This document shows positions 58-8,489 of a DNA stretch of 64,000 nt, piece after piece. The position numbers were made by a program, and so were the translations under genes. The notes below the pieces were generated by a model, which was not told the DNA's origin, searched no databases, and saw only the letters and a list, made by a program, of their open reading frames with translations. Each line of letters starts with the position of its first letter. Within the stretch, counting starts at the first letter, position 1. The stretch is from an uncultured delta proteobacterium (GTDB taxonomy: Bacteria > Myxococcota > Myxococcia > Myxococcales > Myxococcaceae): assembly GCA_963771175.1 (NCBI GenBank), contig CAVYSY010000028.1:1-64000 (forward strand), in the 5' to 3' direction.

Positions 58-538
58 CTACGAGTCGTCTGATACCTTTTCGGGCACTGCAGTTCCGCAC
101 AAGAAGCAGGCCAGGGGTCCCTCCCAACTTTCATCCACCTTCAGGGGAGTGTCAGGATGACATGGCACTTCCACGCGCCGCATATCGTTGGGCTCCAGCG
201 GAGGTTTGATGTCCGGCATACGTGTTTGCCTGGTGCGCACTTTTGTTTTTCAAGAGGCCGCCACTGGTGCGCCCCAGACGCTGGAAAGACTTTGCTATGC
301 GATCCAAAGCTGGCTCCATCACCTCCTTGGCGGCCACTCCTCGCGCGTATTCCAGTTGTGCGTGGGTCCACCACGTCTGGTGCCTGTCCATCACAGTGCA
401 GTACGGGCAAGTGTAAAGAGTTTGCTGGTCAATGCGGGTGAGCTTGGCTTTGAATTGGCGCAAGCACTTGGGGCACTCGCGGCGAATGAATCCATCGGCG
501 TCAACGGGGAAGGATACTGGGATATGAACGATGCTCAT
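58..538 (-). CDS. Zn-ribbon (CxxC-rich) hypothetical protein, one frameshift near 241-251
   Basis: From ATG 538: MSIVHIPVSFPVDADGFIRRECPKC...CPYC...WWT; continues in ORF 58..240 (EPNDM..VPCH..CFLCG). The frame switch falls in the T-run ttttgtttttt. Confidence 0.7.
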
Positions 539-674
539 AGGTACTTTTCCTAGTAGGACAGGGCATGTTGAGCATGCCCCAGTGAAGTTGTGGGATGCGG
601 CTGTCACTGCGCTCGCGACATGCCATCGCAAGTTAAGCAAGACGGGTTGATTGCGTGATCTCTCCGGAATTTCC

Positions 675-941
675 CTACGGTTGCATCACGTGCACTGAGG
701 CGTTGACATGGCCACCATATCCTCCCAGGTCAACCGTCACATGCCAATGACCAGGGTGCGGAGGCCGAATGATAGCGGGTGACTGCGTGTAACGCCCCCC
801 CAGGTAGCGATGTCGCGCCCCTCGCCGGAAGGCGCTAAAGTTGGTGCCATCCATTACCCGTACGTTGGCCGCATTGCCCGACAAATTCACGACGATGGCG
901 TCACCCGGCTTGGTGTCCACTTCGAAATGCAGAAATTTCAT
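675..941 (-). CDS. DUF1883 domain-containing protein
   Basis: 88 aa with NAANVRVMDGTNFSAFRRG..YLGG..SP....GHWHVTVDLGGYGG, the pattern I recognise for DUF1883. Confidence 0.8.
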   Translation of the reverse strand: MKFLHFEVDTKPGDAIVVNLSGNAANVRVMDGTNFSAFRRGARHRYLGGRYTQSPAIIRPPHPGHWHVTVDLGGYGGHVNASVHVMQP

Positions 942-1240
942 ACCGCACCCCGAGCCATGAGCTCAGGCTGGCAGTGGCCGCAGTTGCTGTACCTCACCTC
1001 TGCCAGATGCGGATCCGTGGCGGGGTCCCACCGCGTGATGTGGAGCTGCCAGCGCAAGCCATCCCACAGGTAATAACCGGCGAAGAAGTGCATGTGGGCG
1101 GCTACCATCGAATCGAGATTGTGGCTGCCGTGGCAGTTGCTGCCCGTGTAATGCACCTCGTGCGTGTGGTGATTCCACAGCAGGTTGAAGCCGAGCTGGT
1201 GCTTCAGTCGGATGGTCAGGTGATTCTGGTAATTCAGCAT
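938..1240 (-). CDS. Small His/Cys-rich protein, Ada-metal-binding-like Zn finger
   Basis: NHHTHEVH..C...YSNCGHCQP; 4-nt overlap with the DUF1883 gene; GGAG upstream of the ATG. Confidence 0.55.
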   Translation of the reverse strand: MLNYQNHLTIRLKHQLGFNLLWNHHTHEVHYTGSNCHGSHNLDSMVAAHMHFFAGYYLWDGLRWQLHITRWDPATDPHLAEVRYSNCGHCQPELMARGAV

Positions 1241-1380
1241 GATTTACGCTCCAATGTAGGTGGGGGCAGGAGAGTTCGGCCCCTCAACTAGTTGGTGCTG
1301 GGCAGACGGACACTTTCAGCAAGGGGCTGAAAAAAAGTCGCTGGCCAGCACCTTCCCTTGCCGAGGACGGGGCTGTTCGG

Positions 1381-1959
1381 ATGGAACGGGCGGTTGCCGA
1401 GCGGTTTGACAGAGAGTTTGAGAGCGCCCTGCTGAGGACCACTGCGTATGCGGTCCGACTATGTCGGGCGCTACATGGTGGCGAGATGTGGTCACAGGTG
1501 CGACAAAGAGCCGAGGAGTACGTGCATGAGGCCATCGCTCTTACCCTGGAGGGTACGCGACCTTGGATGCATGAGAGCGTGCCCCTAGCCGGTCATTTGT
1601 CAGGGGTAGTTCGTAGTCTCGTGTCCAATGAGGTGAGTAGTTCCTACATAAAGTTGCGTGACGCGAGAGCGTGGGAGGAAAGCGTGGAGATGAACGCAGA
1701 TGCGTCAATCCGGCGCCCCATCACTCCAGAGGAGTTCTACCTCTCGAAGGAAGCATGTGAGCAAATCGAGGAGGACGCCTACGATGCCGCAAGCACCGAT
1801 GACTCGCTCATCGCGTTCGTGCAAGCCGTTGCAGACGGGGCGTTTGAGGTGGGGGAAATAGCGAAGGCAAACAATGTTCCGCCCGAGCGCATTTACCTAG
1901 CTAAAGACAAGCTCAAGAAGCGCTACAAGGCTCTTCTCAAAAAGAGGCAGGCATCATGA
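1381..1959 (+). CDS. Divergent ECF sigma-factor-like protein
   Basis: AEEYVHEAIALTLEG.RPW...LAGHLSGVVRS (region 2-like) and C-terminal HTH VGEIAKANNVPPERIYLAKDKLKKR (region 4-like). Confidence 0.6.
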   Translation: MERAVAERFDREFESALLRTTAYAVRLCRALHGGEMWSQVRQRAEEYVHEAIALTLEGTRPWMHESVPLAGHLSGVVRSLVSNEVSSSYIKLRDARAWEESVEMNADASIRRPITPEEFYLSKEACEQIEEDAYDAASTDDSLIAFVQAVADGAFEVGEIAKANNVPPERIYLAKDKLKKRYKALLKKRQAS

Positions 1960-2396
1960 AAAAGCAGCTTACCTCCTCTCAGCAATTTGTTCAGCGGCTT
2001 GAATTGCTGGACGCGCTCGATGCCGAACTGCCCTCCAGCGATGCTGAGGCTGAGCGTATTCTGCGTGAGGCAGGAATTGACCCCAGGGCGCTTGTCGCAC
2101 GTGCGCGGAAGCATGTGCAAGAGACACGATGCCGCCTATCTCAGTCTCGCTTGGCTCAAGCATCTGAAACACGTGAAGCGGAGAGTTTGCGTCTGGTGGA
2201 TCAGGTGAAGGCATTTGCCTCCCTGAGCACTGAAGAATTGATGACTCGTGTTCGTGCGCTTGTGGAATCGCCACGGGGGCAACATCTTGCTGTGGCTCAC
2301 AAGGGACTGACTGGGCCATCTTCGCGTGAAGAGCTTGTGGCTCTTCTTGTTGAGTATGAACACTTAGCGAGCGAGAAGAGCAGTGGGCAAAAGTGA
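1956..2396 (+). CDS. Helical hypothetical protein, candidate anti-sigma / protease substrate
   Basis: 146-aa ORF with ATGA overlap to the sigma-like gene and overlap with the peptidase gene. Function inferred from position only. Confidence 0.6.
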   Translation: MKKQLTSSQQFVQRLELLDALDAELPSSDAEAERILREAGIDPRALVARARKHVQETRCRLSQSRLAQASETREAESLRLVDQVKAFASLSTEELMTRVRALVESPRGQHLAVAHKGLTGPSSREELVALLVEYEHLASEKSSGQK

Positions 2397-3177
2397 TGCT
2401 GATATCGCACGTGGCGAGAGGCGAGCCCGTGCAGTGCTTGCCCAAGAGGGGCTTGCCCATCTTGGCGACATAAACATCGAGGATTTTGCATATCTTCGTG
2501 GTGCGCTAGTGCGTAATTTCCCGCTCAAGGGCTGCGAAGGTCGTCTTGCGCGGCTCGGCTCTCGTGCCGTCATCAGCGTCAGCGCCTCAATTGAGTATGA
2601 GCCTCGACGCCGTTTCGTTATCGCTCACGAGTTGGGTCATTTGGAGTTGCATGAGGAGCACAATCAATTAGAACTCTCCTTGTGTGATGAGGATGTCATC
2701 AGTGAACTGTATGATCTAGGCACTGAGCAGGAAGCCAACGCATTTGCCTCTGAGCTCTTAATGCCTAGCGAGGTATGGAGAAAATGTTGCGATGTTGCCC
2801 ACCCTTCGCTTGACTACGTGTCTGAACTTGCTCGGAAGTTCAAGGTCAGCTTTACTGCGGCTGCTATTCGCTTTGCAAGGTTTAGTGGCGAGCGTTGCTG
2901 CGTCGTCTATTCTAAAGATGGAGTAGTCAAGTGGGCTGCGGCGGGACCCGACTTTCACTACTGGATAGAGCGTGGCGCGCACCTTCGTCCAGCAACACTT
3001 GCTAGCGACTACTTCCGAAAGGGCGGTTGTCGTGCGGAGCCAGAGGAGGTTGCGGCTTCAGCTTGGTTGGAATCTCCCGATGCTCGTGGCGAAGAGCTAT
3101 GGGAGCATAGTCGAGTCATTTCATCGCAAAAGGCTGTTTTGTCGCTGCTATGGATCCCAGAAGGGTCTGAATTTTGA
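2383..3177 (+). CDS. ImmA/IrrE-family metallo-endopeptidase (DUF955)
   Basis: RRRFVIAHELGH (HExxH), EQEANAFASELLMP, HTH LARKFKVSFTAAAIRF and an IrrE-like C-terminal domain. Confidence 0.9.
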   Translation: MGKSDADIARGERRARAVLAQEGLAHLGDINIEDFAYLRGALVRNFPLKGCEGRLARLGSRAVISVSASIEYEPRRRFVIAHELGHLELHEEHNQLELSLCDEDVISELYDLGTEQEANAFASELLMPSEVWRKCCDVAHPSLDYVSELARKFKVSFTAAAIRFARFSGERCCVVYSKDGVVKWAAAGPDFHYWIERGAHLRPATLASDYFRKGGCRAEPEEVAASAWLESPDARGEELWEHSRVISSQKAVLSLLWIPEGSEF

Positions 3178-3311
3178 AATCGACTTCCACTACTTTAGAG
3201 CCGGCGAGAGTCACGGTTCTGTGGTTTTTGGTTGAGTCGGTGGAATGGGAGCCAAGCTTCACTCATGAACCAATTCCTTGACAATGCTTCAGCAATTCTG
3301 CGTGCTCCGGG

Positions 3312-3369
3312 GAAGGTGTCAAAGGATTCGTTCCGACGCCTCGCGCCCTACGAATCGTCTGACACCTTC
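3312..3369. repeat. REP-like inverted doublet (19-bp arms, 20-nt spacer)
   Basis: gaaggtgtcaaaggattcg-N20-cgaatcgtctgacaccttc; 3340-3369 matches 30212-30241 at 28/30 nt. Confidence 0.8.
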
Positions 3370-3418
3370 GGCCGGCGCCCATGACCATTCGCCGGATGCG
3401 AATCACGGAGCCGGCGAT

Positions 3419-4262
3419 TCACTTCCCGAGCTGGTTCAAGAGCAGGCTCACGAAGCCGACCACGTCGGCTTGGTTGTCGTCATCGGGCCGGCCTTCGAGG
3501 AAGTGAGCGACCCGCATTGGGCCGAGGCTATCCTGGGTCAGGAAGTCCTCGCGGAGGATCGTGAGCGCCTTGATGCAGTGCTCGTCCTGCAAGAGGGGCA
3601 GCATCCGTTGGACGATGTCCTCCACGCCTTGTCCGAAGTATTTGAGGACGTAGAACAGATCGTAGGCGTCCTTGTTCGTTCCCCGGATCCTGAACGCCAG
3701 CGCTTTGAGGACGATGAAAGCACCCGCACCGCATACCCAGAGGTGACGGTGGGCACGCTCCCCCCGGATCGTGATGTCGTTCATCTCCACGCGGACACGG
3801 TCCCTGAACGCCAGATGGAGCCCGCCGGGCATGATGATGGCCGCGAAATCCGGCTCGAGGTTGCGCAGCTTGCCGGGCTGGTCATCAGCGCGCGTGGGCT
3901 GAATAAGGAAGTCCAGTGTCATCCGGCCCTGTTCGTATCGATTCCCCACGTCTGGCGCGAAAGCCGTCCGTTCCCGTTCGGGGCTTGCGTGAAGCCCGCT
4001 CCCCTCAGCCGTTCGGCGATCTCCTGGTATCGCTCCTCGTCGAACACCGCGATAGATAGACCGAGGTCGAGGTCCGGGTTCCGGCGTGCACCTCCACGGA
4101 ATCGTCTTGGGGGGTGATGAGCAGCGAGGGGACGAGCCCACCGACGACGGTGATCTCCTCGATGAGATCACCCAGGACGGTCGCCACGTAGAGACAGGTG
4201 GCTCGGGCGAGCAGGGCCAGCTCCGGCGGATATCCCGCGCGCGTCTGCGGCTTCTCAGCCAT
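3419..4262 (-). pseudogene. Type IV TA nucleotidyltransferase toxin (AbiEii-like), at least 2 frameshifts (real or sequencing error)
   Basis: ITVVGGLVPSLL..HAGT/DLDLGL (across a frameshift)..AFIVLKALAF..KDAYDLFY; start overlaps the antitoxin stop. Confidence 0.8.
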
Positions 4263-5299
4263 GAAGACTCCAGGCGAGCTGCTTGTGGCGGAGATCCTCC
4301 GCCGCCTCCTGTGCGCGCTCGGGCATGGCGAGTAGATCCAGGTAGGTCTGTACGCCGCTGACGCAACGAATACCTCGATGTCGACGGCTCCGTCGAAGAC
4401 ACCCCGGTAATCGGGCAGGATAGCCAGACATCGGCGCCTCGCTCCTCCTGCCTGAAATGGAGCAGGTCCAACGAGGGCAGTTGCTGCACGTCGACCGTCA
4501 CGACCCGGAAACCGGCGAACCCTGCGTGCAGCCACGCGGACGCAAGCCCCGTTGCGGCATGGGGGATCGAGCCTCTCCCTCAGCGAGCCCGTGAGCGTGC
4601 CAGCGGCATCTGGGGAGAGCGCGTCGGGATATGGCCTCGGACAACATTGTGGCGGTTAAACGAGTACGCCTTTCGCCAGGCCTCCAGGAGCAGGCCGGGA
4701 TTCCTGACCCGGAGGGCACCGTCCTCTCGTGAGAGGAACCCCTCGCTCTCGAGCTGTCGAACAATGCGACTGACGAAACCTTCCCCCAGCCCCGTCTCCT
4801 GGGCGAGCTCCCGTTGGCGGAAAACCCGGGTGGGATCGAGCAGCAGGTGGCGTGTCACACGGGCGCTCTTGGGCGCGAAGACATTCGCGGGGCGGCCTGG
4901 CTTTCGATGCCGATTGGGGCGGCCCTCGATCCGGACGCGGAGACCCGACCCATGGAGATTGGCGTTCCCAGCCAAGTCGATCCAGGACACAGCTGCGGAA
5001 CGGCAGAGCTGCTTGCCGACTTCCCCCATGAAGGGGACCGCGATGACGGGAATGGCGGGCTTGTAGTTGCGCCACACGCGCACTCGCTTCAGTTGCTCGA
5101 TTCCCATCTCAAGGCTTCGGGCACTTGCCGAGGGTTTGCACTCCACCAGGAACAGGTGCTCGGGGCCCTCAACGATGAGATCCACCTGCTTCAGAGTAGG
5201 GGGGCCGATGTTGGAGGTGCCCTCGTAGGGACGCAGGGGCTCCTCCAGGACCTCCGTTAGCACGGCAAGGGCTTCTTCTTCAAAGTCCCGGTCCATCAT
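4255..5299 (-). pseudogene. Type IV TA AbiEi-family antitoxin (winged HTH), about 3 frameshifts in the 3' third
   Basis: WIDLAGNA, wHTH FRQRELAQETGLGEGFVSRIVRQLESEG, LLEAW; reconstructed end RCVSGVQTYLDLLAMPERAQEAAEDL..HG* at 4255. Confidence 0.8.
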
Positions 5300-5719
5300 T
5301 TCTTCACTAAATACACCGATTTGAGTACTTAGTAAAGTAGGGACATTAAGTAAAGGTGGCTCCAAGCTATTGATTTTAAAGGAGGTTGTTGGAGCTGCTT
5401 CACTCAATTCTTTAACTTCACGGTGCGGTGTAGAGGAGGATTTAAGTGAAGCGGCCGGGGGAGCGTGCCCCTGGTTGACCGCCGTGAGGCAGCCCGGGGC
5501 CGCAGGGGTTGTGGGGCCGGAGTTCCACCAACCTCCGGCGCAGGTTCTCCGCGAGCGAGGACGGGACCCCCGCGCGCTCCCTCAAGTGAGGGCAAAGCCG
5601 AAGAGTTAGGAGGAATGGGGGCCCTGTTGAGGGGCGGGCTGATGTAGCAGGGGCCGAGAAAGGGCCGCTGACGGGTGTCACGCAGGCTGTGCGCCGGGCC
5701 AGTGCAGAAGCCGTGCAGG

Positions 5720-5869
5720 CCCCTTGGGGCACACCCCGCCCAAGCCGCCCTCCCCTCAGGGGCCGGCAGAAGGTGTCAGAGGATTTGTACAGCCCCCTTG
5801 GGGCACACCCCGCCCAAGCCGCCCTCCCCTCAGGGGCGCCGGCAGAAGGTGTCAGAGGATTTGTACAGC
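5720..5869 (+). repeat. Tandem duplication (74 + 76 bp), each copy ending in the REP-like motif
   Basis: ccccttggggcacaccccgcccaagcc...gaaggtgtcagaggatttgtacagc at 5720-5793 and 5794-5869, differing by a 2-nt indel. Confidence 0.95.
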
Positions 5870-6045
5870 AGGGCGCTCCCGCCTGGCTCGTGGAGAAAAC
5901 GGGGCCCGCCGTCCCCGCGCAGAAGGAGTACACCCTCGCCCAGGTCCGCGAGGACTTCTGACTCCTGGGTGAGCAGCTCCGTCATGAGGGGCACCGCAGA
6001 TGGCAACTGCTCTCCGGCGGCGGGGTCGGTCCCGCCGACTCGGGC

Positions 6046-7327
6046 CTACTTGTCGAGCACCATGGTGCGGATGAAGCCCTTGGGGTGCCGGGCGTAGGAG
6101 CGCAGGTGCATGGCCACGTCCACCATCCACGGCACCCAGTCCCCCGTGTCGATGACCGCGTCCACCGCACGCTCCCGGTTGCGCGCGTACCACTCGCGCC
6201 AGTGCTTCACCTCGTCCGACGACAGCCGGCCCGACAGGCCCTGCGCCCTCAACAGCAGCTCGAAGATGCCCCGGTGGCAGTAGATGTACTGGCCCCCGCC
6301 CTTCCACGACAGCGCCTCGCGCGACACCTCGGCGAGCTGCGCCTCGTGGCCGCACGCCGCCTCGTACACCATCAGCGGCAGCGGGCTTGCCCCGCGCGAT
6401 GTCGAAGCCCATCTGGCTGTAGAAGCGCGGGTTGAAGTCGATGAGGAGCTGCTTGCCTCCGGCTCGGATGAACTCCAACTCGAACGTGCCGTGGTAGCCG
6501 AGCTTCTTGCACAGCGCTCGCAGCTTCTCGGCGAGCACCGGCTCCACCGGCACCTCCTCGAAGCACAGGCCGATGCCCAGCTTGCGCGGACGCTGCAGCA
6601 CCTTCACCGCCCCGCGCGCCACGAACAGCTCGCCCGTCCGGTCCACGAAGCCGCTCAGGCTGAAGATGTTCTGCGCCGCCTCCGGGTAGAAGGCCTGCAC
6701 CATCGGCCGGTTCGCCTTCGGGTCCTGGTCCAGCAGCTTGCGCCCGTACCGGTTGCGCTCCAGGAACTCCCGGTAGCGCGGCAGCAGCTCGCTCGCGCGC
6801 TCCACCTGCGCGCCCTTCACGTGGCTCTCGAACAGAATCTGCGTCTGCGGCTTGAGCAGCACCGGGAAGCGCGCCTCGGCCGCCACCCGCTCGAGGTCCT
6901 TCTCGCCCTCGGGGAACCACGTCTCCGGCACGTCCAGCCCCACGTCCTTGCACAGGTCGTGCAGCCGCTGCTTGTTCAGCAGCCCGTAGATGACGTCCAC
7001 GCCCGGCTGGTACATGAGGAAGTGCCGCCCCAGCTCCTCGCGGTGCAGGGCGAACAGCCACGCCATGTCATCGCTCGTCGGGTAGAGCACGTGGCCGGGC
7101 TCCCGCTCGCCGAAGCGCATCAGCCACTCCAGGAAGGCGTCCGAGTCGCCCACGTCCGGGCACTCCACCCGGCGCGTCACGTAGCGGCTCCAGCGCGCGG
7201 GCGCCAGCAGCTTGGACTCGGCCACCGTGATGGGGATTCCCAGCCGGCCCAGGCAGCGGACCGCGGCCAGCGTGCCGTAATAGTCGGCCATCGTCAGCAG
7301 GATGGGAGGACGGGCCAGTGTCGTCAT
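6046..7327 (-). CDS. ATP-grasp (carboxylate-amine ligase-like) protein, frameshift near 6385
   Basis: LYPTSD, LNKQRLHDLC..VPET, FPVLLKP, GYHGTFELEF, LIDFNPRF; C-terminus continues in ORF 6046..6372. Confidence 0.85.
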
Positions 7328-7349
7328 GGGTTGCATTCCTCGGGTGTGA

Positions 7350-8489
7350 CTAGCTCGGGCTCGCCGGGGTGCTCACCACCGGTTGCGGAGCGGGCGCCGG
7401 CTTCTTCTCGCCGCGCCAGTCGAAGCGGTCCTTCAGCTTCAGGAAGGGAGTCTCGAAGTAGCGGTAGCTCAGCGTGGCCAGCCCGATGCTCAGCGCCAGC
7501 GTCAGCACGTAGTAGACCGCCTCGTTGTGGAACGGCACCACCCGCCGCACGATGTTCAGCGAAATCATGTGCAGGAGGTAGATGCCATACGTGATGGAGC
7601 CCATGTAGCGCAGCCACGCGTGGTCCACCAGCGGCGCCAGCACATGGTTGGGGCGGATGCACATGGCCACCACCATCACCGTGAGCAGCAGCGAGGACAG
7701 CCACAGCGGCGTGTCGTACCGGTAGATGGCCACCGACACCAGCAGCACCACCACCGGCACGCTCCACGCCTGCCCCAGCACCTTCCACGTCCACTCGAAC
7801 GTCTTCGGGTAGTGCGTCAGGTACGCCGCCAGGCACCCCATGCAGATGGAGATGGAGACGCTGGCGAGGATGCGCACCCACAAGTGCGTCGTGTCGAGGT
7901 AGCCCGTCGTCACGCCCCAGTGCGCGAACAGCCCCAGGCCCAGCAGCCCCGACATGAAGACCACCGGCCCCCAGGCGCTCTTGAAGGCGCGCACCACGAA
8001 GGGCCACATCAGATAGAACTGCTCCTCGGTGGCCATCGACCACGCGAAGTAGAAGATGATGCGGCCCTCTTCCAACGGGATGAACCAGTTGGAGGTGTAC
8101 GTCAGGTAGTAGGGCACGTTGTCGAAGAACGCCCCTCGCACCAGCGGGTCCTTCTCCAGGAAGAACACCAGCACGATGTAGAGGAACGTCACCGCGTAGT
8201 AGAGCGGGAAGATGCGCAGCGACCGCCGCGCGTAGAAGCCCTTGAGCGAGATGCTTCCCGTCTTCGCCCGCTCGCGCAGCAGCAGCGTGGTGATGAGGAA
8301 GCCACTGATGGCGAAGAAGAGCGAGACGCTCAGGTAGAAGCGGCCGATGAGCCCCTGCCGAGCCTCCAGCACGTGGTAGAGCACCACCGCCAGAATCGCG
8401 ATGGCGCGCAGCCCGTCCAGGGCGCCAAAGGTCTTCGTACGCAGGAAGGACTGATGAGCGGCTTGGGCGGAGTCCATGTCTTGACGCAT
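7350..8489 (-). CDS. Acyltransferase family 3 (O-acyltransferase), integral membrane
   Basis: LDGLRAIA, FFAISGFLIT, FYARRSLRIFP, WSMATEEQFY, YGIYLLH, SYRYFETPFL. Confidence 0.92.
   Translation of the reverse strand: MRQDMDSAQAAHQSFLRTKTFGALDGLRAIAILAVVLYHVLEARQGLIGRFYLSVSLFFAISGFLITTLLLRERAKTGSISLKGFYARRSLRIFPLYYAVTFLYIVLVFFLEKDPLVRGAFFDNVPYYLTYTSNWFIPLEEGRIIFYFAWSMATEEQFYLMWPFVVRAFKSAWGPVVFMSGLLGLGLFAHWGVTTGYLDTTHLWVRILASVSISICMGCLAAYLTHYPKTFEWTWKVLGQAWSVPVVVLLVSVAIYRYDTPLWLSSLLLTVMVVAMCIRPNHVLAPLVDHAWLRYMGSITYGIYLLHMISLNIVRRVVPFHNEAVYYVLTLALSIGLATLSYRYFETPFLKLKDRFDWRGEKKPAPAPQPVVSTPASPS

Follow-up and report, generated by a model that had tools for sequence, protein, structure and literature searches.

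Positions 1 to 64,000 of contig CAVYSY010000028.1 (assembly GCA_963771175.1, an uncultured delta proteobacterium of the Myxococcaceae), a 64,000-nucleotide stretch termed here the window, carry three overlapping genes, denoted A, B and C (positions 1381-3177), that appear to encode a transcriptional switch. It is judged somewhat better than an even bet that C, a zinc metallopeptidase, cuts B when activated by single-stranded DNA (ssDNA) and thereby frees A, a sigma factor, to act both on its own operon and on a divergent cargo operon. More generally, this conserved cassette probably activates neighboring stress or defense genes, rather than controlling them through removal of a repressor.

In the proposed mechanism, the triad would constitute a self-contained, horizontally mobile transcription switch. 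Gene product A would steer RNA polymerase to two back-to-back promoters that have in common a -35/-10-like motif; one of these would drive the triad itself (positive autoregulation) and the other the divergent cargo, which consists of a 100-residue protein, a DUF1883 protein and perhaps a zinc-ribbon protein. B would keep A inactive, with the N-terminal helical module of B as the proposed sigma-binding part. Once activated by ssDNA, C would cut B within a disordered linker that bears the motif l-x-m-A-a-R (between LAVAH and K in the window), just before a C-terminal docking helix; the released A would then turn on the cargo and amplify its own operon, and newly made B would reset the switch after C becomes inactive.

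Gene A (1381..1959, + strand) encodes a 192-residue protein with the features of a divergent extracytoplasmic function (ECF)-type (group 4-like) sigma factor; gene B (1956..2396, +) encodes a 146-residue, all-helical protein of no known family, the proposed anti-sigma factor and peptidase substrate; and gene C (2383..3177, +), which starts with GTG, encodes a 264-residue zinc metallopeptidase of the CapP type (ImmA/IrrE, M78). Genes A and B share ATGA at 1956-1959, and genes B and C share 14 nucleotides (nt) at 2383-2396. The G+C content (GC) of 1381-3177 is 0.55, compared with 0.683 for the whole window, and only 4 of 623 sliding windows of 1797 nt are as low or lower; the low-GC stretch also takes in 1-1380 (GC 0.58), that is, the divergent genes to the left of the triad. 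A Pfam scan of the open reading frames (ORFs) of the window found no XRE-type helix-turn-helix (HTH) protein among those adjoining the peptidase gene; the HTH-like protein closest to the triad, at 4580-5407 (-), has winged-helix matches, all of them weak. An earlier interpretation based on the DNA alone (the sequence-only reading) had described three coupled ORFs with these overlaps in low-GC DNA, an intact HExxH motif in the third of them and no XRE-HTH gene beside the peptidase, and all of these are present as described.

The product of gene C matches Pfam Peptidase_M78 (PF06114) with E=2.2e-18 and the PADLOC capP model, over model positions 4-241 of 242, with E=1.3e-60; its residues 48-263 align to residues 62-281 (of 291) of Thauera CapP (7t5t_A) with E=9e-16, and it matches IrrE (3dte) with E=1.3e-3. 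As judged from these alignments, C is a CapP at full three-domain length, comprising a peptidase, a linker and a C-terminal GAF-like domain. Its HExxH zinc site (H82 E83 L G H86; 2626..2640, +) aligns to HELGH of Thauera CapP, and its third zinc ligand, the Glu of 'EQEAN', aligns there as well; both HELGH and this Glu are kept across the 16 triad peptidases surveyed below. A candidate cysteine switch, C101 (codon 2683-2685, +), aligns to the Cys of 'QCSDAD' in Thauera CapP and has acidic residues after it (C101-D-E-D); Cys occurs at this column in 15 of the 16 triad peptidases. According to the Lau et al. 2022 preprint, roughly one in three CapPs has a cysteine-switch loop; the role of the switch Cys is that set out for CapP in the same preprint and in PMC13228613, and activation by ssDNA is reported for both CapP and IrrE (Lau et al. 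2022 preprint; PMC13228613; PMC13373217). By homology, ssDNA may likewise switch on the peptidase activity of C. The one CapP characteristic missing from the locus is an adjoining XRE-HTH substrate (CapH): none of the 20 members of the B family matches a Pfam model at E≤0.01, and none has an HTH.

For gene A, an exhaustive phmmer search returned 95 relatives (E≤1e-3), from which an alignment of 60 sequences was constructed (A and 59 relatives; the 32 weakest, a fragment and three long proteins with multiple repeats were omitted). Sigma70_r2 is matched by 22 of the 60 aligned sequences (best 1.8e-8), and the best-conserved part of the alignment is the sigma2 core-binding region. Among nine further relatives of A, five match TIGR02937 sigma70-ECF below its cut-off (best 2.2e-8, sigma2 through sigma4), and at three of the surveyed loci (L005, L011 and L014) the Prokaryotic Genome Annotation Pipeline (PGAP) labels the first triad gene a sigma-70 family sigma factor. 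The plasmid A proteins described below are homologous to the A of the window (hhalign prob 91%, E=1e-6). An AlphaFold2 (AF2) model of A has a mean predicted local distance difference test (pLDDT) score of 89.6 and consists of two helical domains joined by a disordered linker (101-107). When this model is compared with the PDB using Foldseek, sigma factors or sigma-like domains account for nearly all of the top matches (SigH, SigL, sigmaE, RpoE-NepR and PhyR), the best match being Mycobacterium tuberculosis SigH (5zx2_F, E=3.4e-3, prob 1.00); alignments to ECF sigma factors have prob 0.99-1.00 and E=3e-3 to 4e-2, and those to SigH, SigL and sigmaE extend over the whole length of A. Moreover, a profile of the A family retrieves sigma-H (3mzy, E=0.019, residues 43-191). 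Together, the model and the whole-length alignments indicate a sigma4 domain with its HTH, and neither sigma1.1 nor sigma3, within the 192 residues. This evidence points to A being a divergent ECF-type sigma factor, predicted from its sequence and model to bind core RNA polymerase and to initiate transcription; the sigma fold on which the sequence-only reading had staked its case for the ORF at 1381 is thus found, both in the Foldseek matches and in the Sigma70_r2 and TIGR02937 matches of its relatives. A separate observation concerns the three multi-repeat proteins kept out of the alignment, P0011 (956 residues), P0015 (1468 residues) and P0068 (1167 residues): 4 to 7 stretches in each match residues ~47-147 of A, so that they contain sigma2-like segments in tandem repeat.

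The triad also occurs elsewhere. A search of genome contigs with a four-sequence profile of A returned one locus, on the Cystobacter fuscus chromosome (L001), with the same five-gene layout as in the window: a 101-residue protein gene and a DUF1883 gene divergent from A, B and C. A tblastn search of plasmids with C returned 5 records at E≤1e-10 and 88 at E≤1e-4, of which 16 were inspected: the 14 loci at which C is covered by at least 71% all contain triads, and the two at which coverage is about 50% (L017 and L018) contain ordinary HTH-plus-peptidase, CapH+CapP-like pairs, whose CapH-like proteins match HTH_3 and HTH_19 at 1e-9 to 5e-14. The surveyed triads therefore comprise 16 loci--the window, L001 and 14 plasmid loci--so that conservation of the triad, which the sequence-only reading had made a test of its proposal, is borne out. 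Within the plasmid triads, A has 180-209 residues, B 119-143 and C 251-267, and the hosts are Pontibacter, Spirosoma, Azospirillum, Bradyrhizobium, several Rhodobacterales, Pseudoalteromonas and Polaromonas; the range of the triad thus includes Myxococcota, Bacteroidota and Alpha-, Beta- and Gammaproteobacteria.

In the surveyed loci the triad is divergent from a variable cargo. Genes on the opposite strand include Multi_ubiq/E2/JAB-ThiF (Bub-like) operons, a SMODS/DncV-like nucleotidyltransferase of the type found in cyclic-oligonucleotide-based antiphage signaling systems (CBASS), and Beta_protein, DUF2188 and DUF3892 proteins. At one locus (L016 633-966, Polaromonas naphthalenivorans pPNAP05) the cargo position is occupied by an IS21 transposase. 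Both copies of the promoter-like motif described next are retained there despite the IS21 element, at 874-899 (-) and 916-941 (+). On a Pontibacter actiniarum plasmid (L003 4958-6678), umuD and a Y-family DNA polymerase gene lie directly 3' of the triad on the same strand, which hints that SOS-type translesion genes may share a transcript with the switch.

Between the triad and the cargo of the window lies a spacer (1241-1380) that is conserved with C. fuscus around a dyad at 1294-1352. Two copies of one motif together make up this dyad: one copy, CTGAAA-N15-GCAC (1327..1351, +), points toward the triad and ends 29 nt before the ATG of A, and has its counterpart at the matching place in C. fuscus (L001 7944-7968); the other (1295..1319, -) points toward the cargo operon, 54 nt before the cargo ATG. 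Each arm of the dyad, when read from the center outward, consists of two blocks. In the window 19 of 30 arm positions match, a score equalled by 1 of 300 dinucleotide shuffles; core arms of 7-12 nt, taken by themselves, are not significant, inasmuch as 2 to 38 of 200 mononucleotide shuffles equal their score.

Across loci the motif follows the pattern GTC[CG]G-N14-19-GCAT or CTGnAA-N13-17-rCAy; most proteobacterial loci have the form GTCCG-N17/18-GCATA, and the window the CTGAAA-N15-GCAC form. It occurs once per strand within the spacer between triad and cargo at 12 of the 16 loci. There are 25 matches in about 3.2 kb of spacer (including one stray extra copy, in L007) versus 34 in the other ~170 kb. 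All 24 paired copies face the adjacent gene, and the motif ends 15-35 nt before the start codon of the triad. In most copies a third block, TGAG or TTGAG, follows 7-8 nt past the GCAT block, near the expected start of transcription; in the window this block lies at about 1359-1366 (+) and 1280-1287 (-). At two loci (L009 and L012) the two copies are ~155-180 bp apart and therefore are separate sites, not one palindrome. Because the sites are asymmetric and directional, and far apart at these two loci, they are best viewed as two promoters of one specificity rather than as one operator. A consensus scan of 1241-1380 found no sigma-70-type promoter in the window, and this, together with the duplicated, directional motif, lends added support to positive control. 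Placement of a motif ahead of the operon of A that is common to the putative target genes (12 of 16 loci) is a trait of ECF-type sigma factors; the motif copies may well be the promoters that A recognizes. The possibility that TTTCAGC supplies, in the window, the -35 or -10 element of overlapping promoters that face each other was also considered, and was set aside since the 16-locus comparison favors the back-to-back arrangement.

The protein encoded between the sigma factor and the peptidase, B, belongs to no known family. A single-sequence word search with B found no match and a two-sequence profile found 5 relatives; an Atlas search returned unnamed clusters of 145-149 residues and none else, and a profile search of PDB sequences returned one chance row (E=1.3). 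Homeodomain-like rows from Foldseek were dismissed (prob ≤0.3). In its predicted structure (pLDDT 78), helices span residues 7-23, 29-38, 43-88, 92-104 and 124-143, and residues 113-119 are the sole part with pLDDT<50. The equivalent position is occupied by a protein of 119-143 residues in all 15 other triads, directly downstream of A with an overlap of 4 or 14 nt in 13 of the 16 loci, a layout implying co-transcription; genes B and C overlap or are no more than 10 nt apart at all 16. Alignment of the 16 B proteins reveals an acidic N-terminal module, a long helix that is variable, and then a conserved motif and a C-terminal helix. The motif, with consensus l-x-m-A-a-R, is kept at the 16 loci, and an amphipathic C-terminal helix begins about six residues further on. 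In the window the motif reads LAVAHK (residues 111-116; the codons of L111-L118, LAVAHKGL, are at 2286..2309, +) and falls within the disordered segment 113-119.

For CapH, the site of cleavage by CapP is placed between F82 and R83 in PMC13228613. In the CapH-like proteins of the two control loci, positions 82-83 are F/Y-R and a C-terminal helix follows, and a likeness to B is apparent by eye, in that a hydrophobic residue followed by R or K, a short spacer and an amphipathic C-terminal helix recur; this likeness is architectural alone. By analogy to CapH, the motif-bearing linker of B is a candidate cleavage site, with the cut placed between H115 and K116. Further insight into B comes from a Bradyrhizobium sp. 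192 plasmid (L002 4944-5791), where a sigma-like gene (194 residues, 40% identical to residues 5-84 of A) overlaps a gene for an 87-residue partner and no peptidase gene lies beside the pair. This partner matches the N-terminal module of B alone, without the motif and without the C-terminal helix. The pair, though a single case, fits a two-part B, in which one part would bind the sigma factor and the other would be recognized by the peptidase. (The same plasmid has a separate ImmA/IrrE gene elsewhere.) That B binds A and is cleaved by C is proposed here from gene order, from the conserved motif in a disordered linker and from the analogy with CapH. The sequence-only reading, in which the 146-residue protein is an anti-sigma substrate whose cleavage would free a sigma-like activator, is on the whole partly supported.

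Several observations weigh against a sigma factor that is released by proteolysis of its inhibitor. Binding of A by B and cleavage of B by C are both predictions. B has no recognized anti-sigma domain--neither a class I anti-sigma domain (ASD), nor a zinc-binding anti-sigma (ZAS) motif HxxxCxxC, nor a NepR-like domain--as judged by Pfam, by PDB sequence and fold comparisons and by alignment, the 16-protein alignment being free of any conserved Cys/His pattern; the best PDB fold match to its model has E=0.9. The myxobacterial B proteins show weak, albeit colinear, homology to those of the plasmids (hhalign prob 27%, E=6.6e-4), and the idea that the C-terminus of B is homologous to that of CapH was rejected, as hhalign yields prob 0.1% when the B family is compared with two CapH-like proteins. 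The A of the window has no direct match in Pfam, NCBIfam or PADLOC and falls below the cut-off of every sigma model, and its Foldseek E-values are modest (3.4e-3 at best) with a template modeling (TM) score of ~0.34, a value as low as this being expected when two domains are posed differently. The dyad with 30-nt arms is significant relative to dinucleotide shuffles at only 9 of 15 loci, the pattern is missing or variant at 4 of 16 (L004, L005, L008 and L015), and the enrichment figure is partly circular because the pattern was drawn up after viewing the same spacers. Finally, the survey consists of 16 loci, most of them plasmid-derived.

These points leave room for other explanations. A might be a working sigma factor for both promoters while B is not its anti-sigma factor but an adaptor, a chaperone or an inhibitor of the peptidase, whose substrate would then be either A itself (as in pro-sigma processing) or a host repressor. 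This is unlikely, even though B lacks an anti-sigma fold or motif and the poorly conserved, low-confidence linker of A (101-107) is a place where A could be cut: it is the disordered segment of B, not that of A, whose sequence is conserved; B is always encoded between A and C in overlapping reading frames; and in the peptidase-less pair of L002 an N-terminal B-like module has been retained beside the sigma factor, as would be expected of a sigma-binding partner.

It is likewise unlikely that A acts as a repressor or decoy, binding the conserved sites through its sigma4 HTH until B and C inactivate it, so that derepression would occur as for CapH+CapP. A long dyad such as that at 9 of 15 loci is how an operator commonly appears, the sigma-like decoy domain of PhyR is among the Foldseek matches, and every sigma model scores the A of the window under its cut-off. 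However, the individual sites are asymmetric and have a direction, their blocks are spaced like -35 and -10 elements and they stop 15-35 nt short of the start codon of the triad, and at L009 and L012 the sites are far apart; moreover, the region of A that is best conserved is the one by which sigma2 binds core polymerase, and the spacer of the window contains no sigma-70-type promoter for a repressor to cover. More improbable still is a toxin-antitoxin-like or addiction module (metallopeptidase and antitoxin) with no regulatory tie to the divergent genes. Its appeal stems from a weak, partial NCBIfam match to 'spr1629 family repressor/antitoxin' (E=1.7e-12, far under the cut-off), from partial PADLOC RmrA matches and from the presence of the cassette on plasmids and in low-GC DNA; but the spr1629 and RmrA matches are limited to the peptidase core (residues ~60-165), the full-length match being to capP, the common motif ahead of the cargo operon ties the two sides together, and the cargo classes are those reported for CapH+CapP. 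Release of A from B by proteolysis is retained as the preferred account.

The cargo in the window begins with a gene for a 100-residue, His/Cys-rich protein to which no family can be assigned (938..1240, -): it has no match in Pfam, NCBIfam or PADLOC and no usable match in the Atlas. A 101-residue homologue occupies the equivalent position in C. fuscus. The second gene (675..941, -), which overlaps the first by ATGA, encodes an 88-residue DUF1883 protein (Pfam DUF1883, E=2.1e-24) that is found in L001 too. This overlapping pair is thus common to both myxobacterial loci (L001 7551-7856 and ~7288-7552, -) and may form a small, previously unrecognized effector module; in a literature search, DUF1883 turned up in papers about TIR-domain proteins. 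A possible third gene (152..640, -) encodes a 162-residue zinc-ribbon protein, with a match to the PADLOC candidate PDC-M14A (E=4.8e-13) and weak YnfU-type zinc-ribbon matches; its membership in the module is uncertain because L001 lacks the gene. The sequence-only reading had placed the triad in a defense island. For the window this is weakly and only partly borne out: the PDC-M14A match is in keeping with it, but the cargo here amounts to three small uncharacterized proteins, and beyond ~5.4 kb the GC is 0.69, which is usual for the window, and the ORFs have weak family matches alone.

To the right of the triad, a repeat of ~35 nt forms a hairpin-like inverted pair (3302-3336 and 3349-3384). 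Two more copies (5759-5793 and 5835-5869), 89% complementary to 3349-3384, are carried by tandem repeats of 74-76 nt within 5713-5870, so that copies of the repeat, which have the look of repetitive extragenic palindromic (REP) sequences or miniature inverted-repeat transposable elements (MITE), flank a segment at 3.4-5.8 kb. Within it, at 3419-4535 (-), two long ORFs (3419-4501 and 4005-4535) overlap in different frames and are probably one frameshifted gene; the first, of 360 residues, has no family match in Pfam, NCBIfam or PADLOC, and its N-terminal half resembles an out-of-frame, low-complexity translation. The HTH-like protein encoded at 4580-5407 (-) has 275 residues, weak winged-helix matches (MarR/Crp-like, E ~1e-3) and a weak match to the PADLOC candidate PDC-M05A (E=2.6e-5), and the 5' end of its gene lies within a second dip in GC (0.56 at 5001-5400). 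An AbiE-like pair at 3419-5407 was considered, and found no family support in Pfam, NCBIfam or PADLOC.

To our knowledge, the known regulators of immune operons--CapW/BrxR, CapH+CapP and CapK+CapS--all act by lifting repression. If the mechanism proposed here is true, the triad would be the first proteolytic sigma switch to operate in the cytoplasm under the control of ssDNA, and it would amplify itself, since it bears the same promoter as its cargo. Sigma-based control would give near-zero basal expression of toxic cargo, since the host sigma factor cannot read the promoter, and a sharp, self-amplifying ON state; expression of the cargo would not depend on recognition of its promoter by the host, which suits a module that moves between phyla. 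Such a switch would join two fields, the regulated proteolysis of anti-sigma factors and damage sensing of the ImmA/IrrE type. Both the promoter and the cleavage motif that it predicts are defined, and its parts--an orthogonal sigma factor, an inhibitor, an ssDNA-gated protease and a promoter core of 25-27 nt--would be of use for synthetic circuits. For the window in particular, the switch would mark the 100-residue and DUF1883 proteins as likely stress or defense effectors.

Pairs of ECF sigma and anti-sigma factors that are subject to regulated proteolysis are well known: RseA is cut by DegS and RseP, RsiW by PrsW, and RsiV is a further example. These anti-sigma factors reside in the membrane, where signals from the envelope lead envelope or intramembrane proteases to cut them. 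The triad resembles them in that a small sigma factor is co-transcribed with its putative inhibitor, in an operon that would be autoregulated, and would be released by proteolysis of the inhibitor. It differs in that all of its parts are predicted to be cytoplasmic, in that the protease is of the M78 ImmA/IrrE type and the expected signal is ssDNA, and in that neither a class I anti-sigma domain nor a ZAS motif is present in B. With IrrE/DdrO of Deinococcus and ImmA/ImmR of ICEBs1 and prophages the triad would share the cleavage of a transcription regulator by an M78 peptidase after DNA damage; the substrates in those systems, however, are XRE-HTH repressors, and no sigma factor is involved. 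Moreover, IrrE is described in the Lau et al. 2022 preprint as lacking the cysteine switch. CapK+CapS (PMC13373217) likewise places sigma-regulation machinery (an anti-sigma-type kinase and a STAS antagonist) upstream of immune operons under an ssDNA trigger; unlike the triad, it has no sigma factor, CapS being a DNA-binding repressor, and it operates by phosphorylation rather than by proteolysis.

The closest comparison is with CapH+CapP, which are reported, in the Lau et al. 2022 preprint and in PMC13228613, to respond to DNA damage and to regulate CBASS, Bub and other immune operons. The same preprint refers in passing to 24 systems in which capH and capP occur 'alongside a predicted sigma70-family sigma factor', which may or may not correspond to the triad. 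Full-text literature searches found no paper on the mechanism of a switch made up of a sigma factor, an anti-sigma factor and an M78 peptidase. Hence, the parts and the niche are known, while the wiring (activation by a released sigma factor, a partner with a new fold and a dedicated promoter) was not found described in the literature searched. As in CapH+CapP systems, C is a full-length CapP homologue with HExxH, switch Cys and C-terminal domain; the triad sits upstream of a cargo operon that varies and is transcribed in the opposite direction; Bub-like operons and cGAS/DncV-like nucleotidyltransferases (CD-NTases) are among the shared cargo classes; and, as in CapH, the likely cut site in B falls in a linker that precedes a C-terminal helix, the residue that follows the proposed cut being Arg or Lys. 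There is about an even chance that an entire clade of CapP peptidases, carried on plasmids and islands in three or more phyla, has exchanged a repressor for an anti-sigma factor of new fold as its substrate, so that DNA damage or phage ssDNA leads, through a dedicated and portable promoter, to sigma-dependent expression of CBASS, Bub-like and unknown cargo. In place of the XRE-HTH repressor of CapH+CapP, the triad has an ECF-type sigma factor and a helical protein of 119-146 residues without an HTH (0 of 20 family members), and it is predicted to work by freeing a sigma factor to activate transcription rather than by derepression.

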